Positions 1 to 26,246 of a stretch of DNA of 26,246 bases are shown in pieces. Numbering within the stretch: position 1 is the stretch's first letter; each line of letters opens with the position of its first letter. This DNA comes from a virus. Below the pieces are notes generated by a model. The model searched no databases. It was not told where the DNA came from and worked only from the letters and a program-made list of their open reading frames with translations. The stretch lies in the IMG/VR virus record IMGVR_UViG_3300031867_000495, positions 1 through 26,246 of that record; one strand, given 5' to 3'. The translations under genes were made by a program, and so were the position numbers.

Positions 1-2332
1 TAATTCCATCCGCATCAATTTTAATATTATTTTGGTCTTGTAGCCCAATTATTGCTCCACTCGCCTTAAAAAATGCAACTTTTGTAGCTACTCCATCCAC
101 GCTTTGATATATCGACATTCCTGTATTATCAATCTGGGCGTAGTTGGTAATAGGGTTGGACTCCGCATGAACCTTGATACCATTTGTGCCGTCCGCAGTG
201 ATATATTTAGAGGCAGTCTGTGATGCTGATGTAATTCCTGCATCTACATCCTCTGGCGCAGGAGTCCAAGTTGTACTTTTTTCACCTTCCTACAACTTTA
301 TCCCACATATCTATATATATCCTCCAGCAGGTACATTTGAAGCATAGACATATCCTGCTGAATAACTGTCTCTTTGTGTACCAGTTAAAGTAGCTCCTTC
401 ATAACTAACGTATTGCCAATTGGTAGTAAGTGTCATATTAAAAATTTTACTACCAGTTGTTTGTCCGTTTCCCCATATTGGCTGGGGGGCAACCTCTGAA
501 GTAAAACTAGTATTTGCTCTAATCCAAAGCCCCATACTATATTTTTTCCCTGTTATAAAACGATTGGTTAATCCATCTTGCGCTATTCCAATTCTTGCAG
601 CAGAAGTGCCCGAATTTGTACACCTTATTCCTCCTGTTATTCCTGCCATAGGGGGGGACGATATATCAATATGAGAAGCGGTTCCACCAGAAGATCTCCA
701 TCCTTTTATTCCGCTACTAACAAAAGGCATGCTTGCAGAATTATATAATAGATTTCTTCCACCAATTTCACCACTTAAATCTCCAATATTAATAGCACTA
801 ACGTCTAACTTACCATTAGTTATATTAATTCCACCAATTTCTCCTGAGGTGGCGGTTATTTTACCTGTTAAGTCAACACCAGAAGCATATAAAACTCCCG
901 TATTAGAAACACCAAAATTAGAACCTACTGCTAACATTAATCCAGTTCTTGATGCTCCCGCAATATTAGCAGTCTTATCACTGCTAGATAAATAAAAACT
1001 GGAATTTGAACCTATAGTTCCATACTAAATTGTTCCAGAGGTTAATGTACCCATCTTTGATGCAATAGCTGATAATTTATCTACATTAATTTTTGCTGCT
1101 GTTACAGCATCAGCCGCTATATTATCCGCCTTAACTTCCCCCGCTTTAATTTTTGCAGAAGTCACGGCATTAGCAGCCAATTCATCTGCTGTAATAGCAT
1201 TCGCAGCTATTTGTCCTGCTGTAATACTATTAGCAGTTATTTTACTACCATTAATTGTAGCAGCTGTTAATTCGCCACTTACATTTGCAGCAGGTACTGT
1301 TAAAACTCCAGCGGCAGTTAATTTCATACCTCCAATTTGGGCACTTCCATCATTCCATAGCCACCATTTTCCTCCTGGCCCGCCAGAAATACCATCATTA
1401 TTAATATAAACACCCGAAACATTACTATTCCAAGCAGAATGCCCATTACTATACAAAGCAGAGTTTATCGTAAAATTACCAATCTTACCTGCGCTAGAAA
1501 CAATAACACCTTTAAAATAGCCATTAGTTGTATAGATACCCCATCCTTGAGGAGTAGTACCTTCAACAGCACCTAATCCAGATAAATTTCCAATTCTTAA
1601 ATTAGGATCTGCAAAACCTCCACTTGAACCAGCTGTTGAAGTCGCATTACCACCACCGTAAATATCAATAAAAGTTTTACTATTTGGTCCTAAAGCCGTT
1701 ATATATATACCAATAGGATAAAAAGTAGAACCATCTGCCCTTTGATATAAAGAAATTTTCAACTTACGATAAGGTAACCCCGTTTTAGTACCTATTTCAC
1801 TTAAAATATTAGATGCTAAATAAGTTGACGCACTAGAAGTTTCCTTTTTATTAGTCGTAATTTCTGTGACATTAATTTGACTAGCAGTTACTGTACTCCC
1901 TAACTGCCCCATTAAAGTACCAAAAGGAATATACTCACCATTTACTTGTACTTCTCCTGTAACCAATACCTTAGATCCTGTTGTCCACGCCATGTTAGCA
2001 TTAGAAGCATTTAAATATAAGCTATCAATAGCATAATTAGCTCCATGGAAAGTTAAAGATGTAGCAGTGGTGTCAACGGTTCCAGAATCACTTCCAATAG
2101 TAGGAGTGATATAAAAACTCCCATCAATAGTAGCAATATTAGAATTAGTCCAACTGTTAGTATGTAATTCGCCTTGAACGTCTAATAAACCAACAACAGT
2201 AGCTTCATCAGCTTTTAATTTTTTTATAATTGCGGAGTCCGCTTCAAACGCAGATGTTTCTAGCTCCTCCGCATATACCTTATTTAAAAATCTGCTTGAC
2301 CCATGAACAATTAAATCTTTTAAAATTGCCAT
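1..2332 (-). CDS. Tail-fibre-like structural protein. The N-terminus is at 2332 and the C-terminal end runs off the window at position 1. ORFs 1025..2332 and 311..937 and the stretch 1..310 are one reading frame joined through in-frame TAG at 1025-1027, 311-313 and 290-292
   Basis: RBS AAAGGAGG is followed by ATG at 2332. The N-terminal region has Ala/Ile/Thr-rich helical repeats (ITANSITAGQIAANAITADELAANAVTSAKI). The body is Gly/Ser/Thr/Asn-rich. Near the C-terminus is the motif 'KL[TAG]EGEKSTTWTPAPED', typical of Gram-positive phage tail and receptor-binding proteins. Frame continuity: 1027-937=90 and 313 continues to 310, both divisible by 3. Confidence 0.7.
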
Positions 2333-2339
2333 GTGAAAA

Positions 2340-2362
2340 CCTCCTTTCTATTAAAAAGGAGG
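2340..2362 (-). promoter_or_regulatory. Hairpin CCTCCTTT-ctattaa-AAAGGAGG between two minus-strand genes. The stem contains the Shine-Dalgarno of the downstream tail-fibre gene and is followed on the minus strand by TTTTCAC. It could act as a terminator or translation-coupling element
   Basis: A perfect 8-bp inverted repeat is read directly in the sequence. It lies between the stop of the 2383..2841 gene and the ATG at 2332. Confidence 0.4.
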
Positions 2363-2382
2363 CCTCAAGCATCCTTTTCATT

Positions 2383-2841
2383 CTATTCAAAAACAGAAAG
2401 TATATCTAAATCATCCATATTTAAATTACAATCTATATCTAATCTATCCATTTCCGCCTCAATATCAATTGGAGTAAAATCAAATTTTTCTTTAGTTAAA
2501 GCTAATTCATTTAACTTCCCATTAATTTCAGTAATTTTATTTTGATAATCACCTAAAAATTCATCTTTTACTTTTTGAGCGGGAGTATCATTTCCATTTT
2601 CATCCTTAACAATTGTTTCTTCACTCTTCTCATCAGTAAAGAATTCATCTCTTAATTCTTTTTCTAAATTCTCCTTAAACTCATTAAAATAATCAGTTAC
2701 TTCAGAAATCTTTTTCATATTCTTTCTTAATGCCCATAAGGTTTTCACAGACAGTCCATTTAGCTTATTCTTATCCTGTCTAACCTGATTATACCAACCG
2801 TTAATATTAACACATTCCATTACTAAAAGTTCTTTAGTCAT
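2383..2841 (-). CDS. Hypothetical small acidic protein (152 aa)
   Basis: Intact ORF with a GGAG-type RBS upstream (gaaaaaaggagatttaaaATG) and a TGA stop. Asp/Glu-rich. No recognisable domain. Confidence 0.6.
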   Translation of the reverse strand: MTKELLVMECVNINGWYNQVRQDKNKLNGLSVKTLWALRKNMKKISEVTDYFNEFKENLEKELRDEFFTDEKSEETIVKDENGNDTPAQKVKDEFLGDYQNKITEINGKLNELALTKEKFDFTPIDIEAEMDRLDIDCNLNMDDLDILSVFE

Positions 2842-24201: not shown

Positions 24202-24214
24202 AAGGAGGATTATT

Positions 24215-25917
24215 ATGACAACTAAGAAAGTTATAGATATATCTCAATTTAACAATGTTACAGATTGGGCAAAAGTTAAAGCAACTGGTTATCCTGTTAT
24301 TATAAGAATTGGATATAGAGGAAGTAAAACGGGAATTATTACATATGATCCAAAATATAAATAGTATAGAGCAGCTTGTGAAAAATATGGAATTGAGCAT
24401 TCTTTTTATTTCTTCCCCTGCTCTATAACAATAGCTGAAGCTCACGAAGAAGCTCAATTTGTAATAAATGAAGTAAAAGACTGTAAACTTAATATGCCAG
24501 TTTTTTGGGATAGTGAAGTTGTACAAAGAAATAAAAGCGGACGTTCAGATAAATTATCAAGAGAGAAAAGAACTAAGATGTTAAAGATTCTTTGTGAAGA
24601 TTTACTTGCGGCGGGCATCCCTTGTGGCGTGTATGCATCTAGATCTTGGCTATATAATAATCTAGATATGAGTCAAATTCCAACTGCCGCAGAGTATAAT
24701 ACTTGGGTAGCGGAATATGGCGTCGCTCAAAACAAATATAATGGTAACCAGGTTTTATGGCAGTATACTTCAGGTGGAACTGTCAATGGCATCGGCGGCC
24801 GCGTTGATTTAAGTTATATTATAAATGTTTTTAATATGAACGCTGCGGAAAGTAAACCTTTAGAACAGAAAGAATCTAAACCTATTGAAAAGTCTGAATG
24901 GGAGAAAATTTTAGAAGTTGCTAAAGAAGAATTAGGATATTTAGAAAAGAAAACTAATTCAAGCCTAGATAGCAAAACAGGTAACGCAGGATATAATAAT
25001 TATACCAAATACTGGCGAGATATTAATACCTGGTGTGGTAAGAATTATCAAGGTCAACCTTGGTGTGCTGCTTTTGTAACTTGGTGCTTTACAAAGGCAT
25101 TAGGTAAAGCAAGAGCACAGCAATTATTAAAGCATTATCCATATGTTTACTGTCCTACTCTTGGTAATTTATTTACTAGAAATGCAAATCCTAAAGTTGG
25201 TGATATTGTAATTTTCTGGAAAAATGGCACTTTTGCCCATACTGGTTTAGTAATAGCTGTAAATGGAGATCAATTTACTACAATAGAAGGAAATACAAGC
25301 GGCGCTTCTTCCGTTGTAGATAATGGCGGTGGAGTTTGTCAGAAAACTTATTACAATTCTAAATTACCTGGCACAAAATTCTGCACCCCTGCTTATAATT
25401 CAACCTCAATTTCTTCTAATGTTAATAAAGTAACAGTAGCAGATGATATGCATACAGTTAAATGGAAAGGTTATGTTACAACAGGTAATGCAAATTTAGC
25501 GGTTAGACTAGAACCAAAAAATAATGCAAAGGAATGTTCTTTTAGTCCATTAAAAAATGGAACAGAAGTTGGGGTTTCTTATGAAACTGGTAACTGGTAT
25601 TTAATTAAGTATGATGGAAAATTCGGATATGTAAATAAAGCATATATTAATAAAACTAAACCTGAAACTAATTCTTCAAAAACAATAAATAATACTACAG
25701 ATGATATTCATACAGTAAAATGGAATGGTGTAGTAAAAACAAATGGCGGCACCCTTAACGTTAGAGTACAGCCAAGTACGAATGCAAAAACTTGTAGTTT
25801 CGGTCCTTTAAAGAATGGTACTTCAGTAGGAGTCTGTTATTAGAATGGTAAATGGTATTTAATTAAATATAATAATAAATTTGGATATGTTTATTCTGAT
25901 TATATTATAAAAAAATA
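24215..25917 (+). CDS. Multidomain endolysin with an N-terminal GH25 muramidase, a central CHAP peptidase and two C-terminal bacterial SH3 repeats. In-frame TAGs at 24362-24364 and 25841-25843, with the stop at TAA 25915-25917
   Basis: RBS AAAGGAGG precedes ATG 24215. GH25 signatures (VIDISQFNNVTDWAKVKATGYPVIIRIGY, LWQYTSGGTVNGIGGRVDLSY). CHAP Cys and His (QPWCAAFVTW, FAHTGLV, TIEGNTSG). The SH3 repeat HTVKWKGYV...VGVSYETGNWYLIKYDGKFGYV is duplicated as HTVKWNGVV...VGVCY[TAG]NGKWYLIKYNNKFGYV. ORF 24494..25843 is the TAG-free middle in the same phase (24494-24215=279). Confidence 0.8.
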
Positions 25918-25932
25918 AGGGGGAAAGAAGAT

Positions 25933-26246
25933 TGAATATAGAATTAGAATTAGTTGTAACAGTTATTATTGCTATAATAGGTTCTAACGCACTATGGGGA
26001 TTTATTCAATTTCTATTGGAACGTAAAGATAAAAAAAGTGATTGTTCAAAGAAAATTCTTGCATCAATTTAGGAATTAAAAACTAAACTTGATGAAAGAA
26101 CAGCAGTGGGATGCCGTATTCGTATCCTTAAATTTATGGATGAAATTATTGAAGGATGGGAACACTCAAAAGATAGTTATAATCAAATAATGAGAGATAT
26201 TACAAACTATCTTCAGTATTGTGATGAACATCCTTAGTTTTTAAAT
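25933..26246 (+). CDS. Small membrane protein, possibly holin-like, downstream of the endolysin. It has a TTG start after RBS AAGGGGGAAAG, one N-terminal TM helix and an in-frame TAG at 26069-26071. It continues to the window end
   Basis: Manual translation gives LNIELELVVTVIIAIIGSNALWGFIQFLLERKDKK... A hydrophobic helix is followed by a charged segment. Confidence 0.35.

Follow-up and report, generated by a model that had tools for sequence, protein, structure and literature searches.

Structural, Homing-Endonuclease, and Lysis Genes Reading TAG as Sense in a Phage Genome Fragment, with a Possible Stop-Hop in a Phosphoesterase Gene

Introduction

The subject of the present analysis is a stretch of viral DNA of 26,246 nucleotides (nt), positions 1 to 26,246 of the IMG/VR record IMGVR_UViG_3300031867_000495 (the whole stretch is called the window hereafter), whose structural, homing-endonuclease, and lysis genes use TAG as sense. 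The window is probably part of a large uncultured tailed-phage genome of about 130-145 kilobases (kb); a Gram-positive host is suggested by domains of a kind that usually binds the cell walls of such bacteria, and the sample names of the relatives are ruminant or gut ones.

Gene Content of the Window

When TAG is read as sense (code 15), the window holds 21 genes amounting to 6,677 codons; these, with a remnant phosphoesterase N-terminus discussed below, are given here with the positions of their in-frame TAGs.

2..2332, minus strand: tail-fibre-like gene running past the left window end, with no match in a Pfam search; TAG at 1025, 311, and 290
2365..2841, minus strand: hypothetical protein of 158 residues; TAG at 2383, 5 codons ahead of the TGA stop
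2860..3324, minus strand: CmpB-like (PF06541) membrane protein, its start probably the ATG at 3324 or 3315; TAG at 3241, 3148, 3088, and 2914
3302..4171, minus strand: hypothetical protein, start uncertain; TAG at 3461, 3401, and 3308
4161..4742, minus strand: hypothetical protein of 193 residues, TAG-free
4745..6586, minus strand: protein with two LamG (Laminin_G_3) domains; TAG at 4961-4963, within the second domain
6673..11943, minus strand: fibre-like protein of 1756 residues; eight TAGs, at 11890, 11875, 11824, 11806, 11449, 9757, 8572, and 7678
11956..14589, minus strand: fibre-like protein of 877 residues; six TAGs, at 14533, 14203, 14191, 13930, 13165, and 12871
14606..15346, minus strand: hypothetical protein of 246 residues; six TAGs, at 15341, 15233, 15083, 15044, 14921, and 14618
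15543..20866, plus strand: TAG-free block of six genes (150, 832, 111, 411, 73, and 100 residues), including the three that follow
16061-18559, plus strand: vault-shoulder/SPFH-like protein of 832 residues, by Pfam matches
19011-20246, plus strand: RNA ligase of 411 residues (PF09414 with a PHA02142 OB fold)
last gene of the block, plus strand: zinc-finger-like protein of 100 residues
20868..20900, plus strand: remnant phosphoesterase N-terminus MIYFTADLH (codons 20868-20894), then ATG TAG
20972..21955, plus strand: GIY-YIG / I-HmuI-NUMOD homing endonuclease; six TAGs, at 21002, 21050, 21200, 21245, 21368, and 21725
21963..22515, plus strand: metallophosphoesterase broken inside motif I, with a leader at 21963-21995 and a TAA at 22513-22515
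22526..22951, plus strand: hypothetical protein of 141 residues; TAG at 22733
23030..24202, plus strand: metallo-beta-lactamase fold with two CW_7 repeats; TAG at 23345 and 24110
24215..25918, plus strand: endolysin with GH25, CHAP, and two SH3_3 domains; TAG at 24362 and 25841
25932..26246, plus strand: hydrophobic N-terminal stretch running past the right window end; TAG at 26070 and 26235

TAG as a Sense Codon

TAG stands in frame in 13 of the 21 genes, 45 times in all, and neither TAA nor TGA is found in frame anywhere in the 6,677 codons. The initial annotation, made from the letters of the window alone, had proposed that TAG is sense across the long genes, which is borne out, and had counted at least 14 such genes, slightly too many; its coordinates for the TAGs at 4961-4963, 24110-24112, and 25841-25843 are exact, and the one that it put at 9754-9756 lies one codon away, at 9757-9759, between fragments of 518 and 391 codons. 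Its statement that every gene ends at TAA or TGA is partly built into a map in which TAG is treated as sense; what stands is that all eight TAG-free genes end at a stop other than TAG.

Under the standard code, many open reading frames (ORFs) end at TAG and then resume directly in the same frame. The comparison of code 11 with code 15, which had been suggested as a check, shows that code 15 lengthens the ORFs and completes domains: the largest stop-to-stop ORFs, compared under four codes, grow from 844, 563, 548, and 492 codons to 1760, 878, 844, 783, 625, and 571 codons with TAG as sense, and remain unchanged with TGA or TAA as sense. Beyond the stops of code-11 ORFs of at least 100 codons, the median open frame amounts to 83.5 codons for TAG, 16.5 for TAA, and 3 for TGA; 11 of 18 frames stay open for at least 50 codons beyond TAG.

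The LamG domain, the CW_7 repeat, and the second SH3 repeat are, as predicted, completed only by reading through; indeed, in a Pfam comparison of truncated and read-through products, the second LamG domain reaches only from profile position 15 to 104 if the product ends at TAG 4961 and, with read-through, matches 15-151 of 151, and one repeat becomes two both past TAG 24110 (CW_7) and past TAG 25841 (SH3_3). The GH25 match (residues 7-193) crosses the TAG at residue 50, the CmpB-like match (residues 53-164) crosses three TAGs, and the GIY-YIG core, rightly said to carry TAG, has a match (residues 5-90) that crosses three as well.

An independent assembly of the same phage is available as the ENA contig k141_254439 (25,394 bp), which is 99.886% identical to the window over 19,330 bases and has all the TAGs; 20 of the 22 differences are synonymous in the inferred frames. 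In the ENA collection, the gene caller had already called the proteins of 1756, 877, and 243 residues through their TAGs.

Relatives of the Window

No match was found in a megablast search of 25 kb against 50,697 phage records, and the best protein matches among deposited phages, to huge-phage records, reach 38%. A search with the vault-like protein (832 residues) yielded 45 IMG/VR loci with 55-81% identity, many of them on contigs of 120-195 kb; this search left the variable tail and lysis genes with few alignments, and relatives from ENA and JGI were added. Recoding of TAG is clear in several relatives, L010, L004, and L006 having ORFs with 7-22 in-frame TAGs, and other relatives look standard; L047, an ENA contig with 70-89% DNA identity to the window, has the same TAG pattern gene by gene, with TAG in the fibres, the endonuclease, and the lysis genes and none in the RNA-ligase block or in gyrase B.

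Over all code-15 ORFs of the loci, TAG faces TAG in 1,772 of the 1,868 pairs aligned at a protein identity of at least 80%. In particular, three TAGs of the 877-residue fibre-like gene remain TAG in three relatives, and those at 26070 and 26235 remain TAG in 11 and 9 relatives, respectively. At other sites sense codons are found: site 22733 is CAA in four relatives and CAG in one; the endolysin site 25841 is CAA in five, AAA in six, and GAG in one, and the ORF goes on; the sites in 14606..15346 show TAG, CAA, or GAA. A recoding of TGA in some relatives, hinted at by raw ORF totals, is unsupported by the read-through statistics.

Gyrase B is split into two ORFs by GIY-YIG endonuclease genes in L047 (16039-19256), L048, and L049 (17574-20590), and in L048 topoisomerase IV/gyrase A is likewise split by a GIY-YIG gene, the two split genes of L048 lying at 11605-14601 and 16363-19773; these genes recall the split topoisomerase genes 39 and 60 of T4.

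The Amino Acid Inserted at TAG

From the codon-level alignments, the best-supported meaning of TAG is most likely glutamine (Gln). At protein identities of at least 80%, the non-TAG partners of TAG are CAG (26), TGG (14), AAG (11), GAA (9), and CAA (8). Amino-acid likelihoods, calculated with substitution frequencies from the same alignments, give Gln as the best reading in every family-wide identity band; its lead exceeds 100 nats family-wide at 80% identity or more, the counts not being independent, and amounts to 8.4 nats over glutamate (Glu) and 8.7 nats over lysine (Lys) when the TAGs of the window are counted per position (23 positions with a non-TAG partner). The L047 endonuclease, 94.5% identical to that of the window, keeps five of its six TAGs, and the sole TAG changes between the two are two TAG/CAA swaps. 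In crAss-like phages, the assignment of TAG to Gln has been confirmed by mass spectrometry (PMC9523058).

Suppressor tRNAs in the Family

Transfer RNAs with a CUA anticodon, tRNA(CUA), occur in five family contigs of 94-139 kb. They are present in L025, L043, and L044, which share 58-60% identity with the window in the vault-like protein, and in the tRNA arrays of IMGVR_UViG_3300021399_000007 (L378; the contig of L005), where this identity rises to 80%, and of IMGVR_UViG_3300031867_000025 (L407; the contig of L013). The tRNAs of L378 and L407 came from a broader pattern scan; a first, narrower pattern had given 11 hits, none in close relatives, and in the JGI relatives no tRNA(CUA) was found. 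The tRNA(CUA) of the relatives are ordinary cloverleaves. The suppressor mechanism is thus supported at the family level, and for the genome of the window it is an expectation from its relatives.

Other tRNAs of the family were observed in passing: L378 has, beside its tRNA(CUA), a weakly paired tRNA with a UUA (ochre) anticodon (2898-2972), L027 has a tRNA(UCA) at 3643-3718 with no evidence of TGA recoding, and the tRNA(CUA) of L044 (20495-20591) is 97 nt long, with a long extra arm or an insert.

The TAG-Free Block

The six-gene block at 15543-20866 has no TAG in 1,677 codons, against 11.3 expected (P = 1.2e-5; TAG versus CAA+CAG, Fisher p = 1.5e-4), and the phosphoesterase body is likewise TAG-free. 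In the relatives, about 58,000 aligned codons of the block orthologues are free of in-frame stops (vault-like protein, 38,028; RNA ligase, 16,544; zinc-finger protein, 3,194; 36-48 loci), to be compared with 4-25 in-frame stops per 1,000 codons in the orthologues of TAG-bearing genes; the alignments thus support a family-wide conservation of TAG avoidance in this block.

As to the individual proteins, the vault-like protein matches SPFH/Band 7, a vault repeat, and the shoulder of the major vault protein; 48 related loci have kept it, the close relative L047 lacks it, and it is 38% identical to a gene of the 735-kb huge-phage records LR756501/LR756503. The RNA ligase (19011-20246) is conserved in 42 relatives and is a candidate tRNA-repair enzyme, which would be relevant to a tRNA-dependent phage. 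AAG and GAG are also richer in the block.

Proposed Mechanism and Alternative Explanations

We consider it highly probable that TAG is sense in this phage (most likely Gln), that a suppressor tRNA(CUA) is encoded elsewhere in its genome, and that the difference in code acts as a timing lock on late genes; the code is well supported, the tRNA is supported at the family level, and the timing is what we infer. As in published recoded phages, the TAG-free genes would be translatable by the unmodified host, and the TAG-bearing late genes would give truncated products until the amber-suppressor tRNA(CUA) of the phage is made; once charged by a host synthetase, this tRNA would allow the TAG-bearing genes to be read through, and the difference in code would serve as a lock on the timing of the structural and lysis proteins and of the selfish endonuclease. 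The suppressor gene would be expected outside the window, as in the relatives. The view of the initial annotation, that the TAG-bearing genes would be untranslatable until a suppressor is in place, is reasonable on these grounds.

A decaying prophage or a set of pseudogenes, with dead genes whose TAGs arose as nonsense mutations, would account for the many genes fragmented under the standard code. TAG, however, makes up 25% of the stop triplets in the window, so that random nonsense mutations would not all be TAG (P ~1e-27 for 45 of 45 interruptions, by hand arithmetic from this share); there is no TAA, TGA, or frameshift among the interruptions, the TAG positions are kept in relatives, the differences between strains are almost all synonymous, and the domains stay complete through the TAGs, all of which makes this explanation exceedingly improbable. 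An explanation within the standard code, with same-frame tandem genes each ending at TAG or with low-level programmed read-through, deserves just as little credit. It could draw on the TAGs at 2383, 3308, and 14618, which stand 1-5 codons ahead of a TAA or TGA stop and may be former stops now read into short C-terminal tails; yet site 14618, 3 codons ahead of TAA, is GAA in one relative and TAG in three, which indicates that the tail is coding and that the TAG there is not simply a former stop. Moreover, domains and homologue alignments pass straight through the TAGs, up to eight TAGs stand in one ORF, and 12 relatives have an orthologue whose ORF continues through a sense codon at the TAG site.

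Several observations weigh against parts of the mechanism proposed here, and two further alternatives build on them. Glu and Lys are frequent partners of TAG in distant homologues (40-80% identity), distant homologues of the endonuclease most often have Glu at four of its six TAG columns, and the ordinary tRNAs nearest to the tRNA(CUA) of the relatives are those for tryptophan (Trp; the nearest to the L378-type suppressor) and Gln, by a crude similarity that makes no isotype call; ARAGORN, for its part, calls every CUA anticodon 'Pyl'. That TAG is sense and stands for Glu, Lys, Trp, or pyrrolysine is nevertheless improbable, since Gln wins the likelihood comparison in all identity bands and per position, and TAG/CAA swaps occur within a 94.5% identical protein. 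The tRNA(CUA) of the relatives have the D and T loops of ordinary cloverleaves and 5-bp anticodon stems, which differ from those of tRNA-Pyl; no pyl genes are among the Pfam matches of the window, and TAG is used in 13 genes of unrelated function, as opposed to few genes in pyrrolysine decoding. An amber suppressor derived from E. coli tRNA-Trp inserts Gln, so that likeness to tRNA-Trp need not mean Trp. Mass spectrometry in other phages also gave Gln (PMC9523058).

The other points against concern the switch: the window has no tRNA, release-factor, or synthetase gene; no tRNA(CUA) was found in L047 or in 41 kb of the 142-kb contig IMGVR_UViG_3300021399_000006 (L010); the 'early' status of the TAG-free block is one that we infer; and the Gln codons of the block (40 CAG to 10 CAA) differ from those elsewhere in the window (43 CAG to 151 CAA), so that its freedom from TAG could partly reflect another cause. 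This flip might be a matter of expression class or of separate origin, or CAG may have been converted to TAG. A recoding that is real and has no temporal switch, TAG being suppressed by the host or constitutively and the block owing its character to origin or codon bias, would be in keeping with the distinct codon usage of a block of no proven early function and with a window lacking any switch component; we regard it as unlikely, although less so than the other alternatives. Across 36-48 relatives that vary in composition, the block genes stay free of TAG; L047 also has TAG-free gyrase genes, and the same partition has been published for recoded phages of eight clades, whose hosts use the standard code (bioRxiv 10.1101/2021.08.26.457843).

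An Endonuclease Cassette and a Possible Stop-Hop

Directly downstream of the endonuclease, the phosphoesterase ORF at 21967-22515 runs for 97 codons before any start codon; its alignment to the intact L010 gene places the true start at ATG 21963 (MSQTFFTSDLH). In motif I, the His codon is followed by a seven-base insert, TAGTCAT (GAC TTA CAT TAG T CAT ATC GGG CAC GAT), so arranged that a take-off CAT (21993-21995) is followed by TAG (21996-21998), T (21999), and a landing CAT (22000-22002), and the remainder of the gene is in the +1 frame up to its TAA. Upstream of the endonuclease, the remnant N-terminus (20868-20894) forms the left edge of an inserted cassette which seems to have entered exactly after the His codon of a resident phosphoesterase gene.

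An insert made of a codon, a stop, 0 or 1 nt, and a matched codon is found at ten loci, in six sequence variants.

CAT TAG T CAT: the window, L047, L048
CAT TAG C CAT: L049, L230
CAT TAG CAT: L034, L228
CAT TGA CAT: L089
CAT TGA C CAT: L231
CTT TAA CTG: L125

At nine of these ten loci (L034 has none) a homing endonuclease lies directly upstream and ends about 48 nt away; seven are GIY-YIG enzymes homologous to that of the window, one is a distinct GIY-YIG enzyme (L231), and one a LAGLIDADG enzyme (L228). None of 44 insert-free phosphoesterase loci has an upstream endonuclease, and the association is significant (hypergeometric p ~4e-7, calculated by hand on seven insert-bearing and 44 insert-free loci). 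Skipping from one codon copy to the other restores the exact D-x-H-x-G-H spacing at all ten loci, and the ORF past the insert is intact for 171-193 codons in eight of nine, that of L047 stopping after 108; L231, whose sequence ends 28 codons past the insert, was left out of this count. In a control scan for any triplet between two CATs, only stops were found in the phosphoesterase context, and the eight other hits are unrelated genes. Comparison of non-synonymous and synonymous changes (dN/dS) among the insert-bearing phosphoesterases gives lower non-synonymous values in all pairs, with synonymous sites saturated; since the cassette moves horizontally, this does not date selection after insertion. 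The leader ahead of the insert has only 11-14 residues, and no conserved take-off hairpin was found at the insert, a 5-bp hairpin being present only in the window, L047, and L048. The endonuclease alignment, used as a query, returned only generic GIY-YIG genes.

A group I intron was considered, as a 5' exon ending ...GAUUU and an intron end ...CAUUAG would fit the U and G rules; it was set aside because a second N-terminus with its own ribosome-binding site and ATG is kept in every endonuclease-bearing relative, and because the same short insert occurs in the endonuclease-free L034 and in-frame 6-nt variants exist. An Rfam search of the whole window at gathering scores gave no hit, and a permissive one in 20800-22100 found no group I intron, only a chance small-RNA hit. 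Neither a +1 frameshift nor simple read-through explains the matched flanking codons or the existence of both 6-nt and 7-nt forms.

It is tentatively proposed, as one serious possibility, that the phosphoesterase at 21963-22515 is expressed by a natural ribosomal stop-hop: peptidyl-tRNA-His would leave CAU 21993-21995 with UAG in the A site and re-pair at CAU 22000-22002, 7 nt downstream, which would restore the D-L-H-I-G-H active-site motif with the junction peptide FFTSDLHIGHDK (DLHSHIGH would result from a +1 frameshift). The insert of 6-7 nt would then be the self-immunity mark of a mobile cassette composed of the endonuclease, a new start codon, the leader, and the hop; at least six sequence variants of this cassette, with TAG, TGA, or TAA as the stop, would have spread through phages of the rumen and gut. 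In the window, the hop would work only while TAG is a stop; once the suppressor is made, TAG would be read as Gln and translation would end, out of frame, five codons later, and the enzyme would be switched off. Alternatively, the phosphoesterase gene may be dispensable and simply be inactivated by the endonuclease cassette.

A homing endonuclease accompanied by a translationally bypassed insert, with a gap of 50 nt, is known from gene 60/mobA of T4 (bioRxiv 10.1101/2022.08.31.505936). The two systems share an endonuclease directly upstream of a gene with a short non-coding insert at a conserved site, a stop right after the take-off codon followed by a matched landing codon, and a cassette that brings a new ribosome-binding site, start codon, and N-terminus; in both, the insert would shield its carrier from its own endonuclease. 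They differ in that the gap is 6-7 nt rather than 50 nt, the leader in the window has 11 residues, there is no conserved hairpin, the target is a phosphoesterase rather than a topoisomerase, and the GIY-YIG and LAGLIDADG enzymes have no homology to mobA. As regards stop-hops proper, the known cases were engineered and of low efficiency, and no natural in-frame stop-hop was known as of 2016 (PMC5009743). The CAT-TAG-CAT, CAT-TGA-CAT, and CTT-TAA-CTG of the relatives have exactly the form of these synthetic stop-hops, whereas the CAT-TAG-T-CAT of the window is a 10-nt variant that also shifts the frame by +1. No report of such a natural stop-hop cassette was found in the searchable literature. 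If true, this would be the first natural family of stop-hops, and the pairing of a homing endonuclease with a mobile translational bypass element would have a second, independent example; with its gap of 6-7 nt and its 11-residue leader, the system would also be a simple one in which to study bypassing.

Relation to Known Recoded Phages

Eight phage clades with TAG or TGA recoding have been described, with recoded codons in the structural and lysis genes and a variable adherence to the standard code among replication genes; Borges et al. proposed that late or lytic proteins are delayed until suppressor tRNAs are made, and also noted a strongly recoded intron endonuclease (bioRxiv 10.1101/2021.08.26.457843). 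The pattern of the window agrees with that of published TAG-recoded phages, as the initial annotation had held. With the code-15 gut phages (crAss-like, Lak, Garnet, Amethyst, Agate, and Topaz) it shares the concentration of TAG in structural and lysis genes, DNA-metabolism and other genes compatible with the standard code, interleaved recoded modules, a heavily recoded homing endonuclease, a low content of guanine and cytosine, and mixed codes within one clade, as well as a suppressor tRNA(CUA), here in relatives and with none in the 26-kb window; it differs in having no nucleotide match to a deposited phage and a best protein match of 38%.

The Agate clade (154 +/- 27 kb, from cattle and pig samples, with codes 11, 15, and 4; bioRxiv 10.1101/2021.08.26.457843) agrees with the relatives of the window in their size (about 130-190 kb), ruminant or gut sources, and mixed codes, a likeness by description only, the window having no terminase. 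The phage phAss-1 (proposed Phassvirus), of about 136 kb and from gut viromes, uses TAG as Gln in 41 ORFs and has three tRNA(CUA) (PMC10607447); it follows the same recoding logic and is not a close relative of the window phage. In the searches with the vault-like protein and the RNA ligase, no deposited phage exceeded 60% identity, and no phAss-type phage was among the matches listed.

The recoding found here joins the already known class of TAG-to-Gln phages, of which the window and its relatives provide a well-documented example, from a family with no deposited relative and with a sharp, family-wide partition between TAG-free and TAG-bearing genes. Gene callers that assume the standard code shred such genomes, which should be annotated with code 15.

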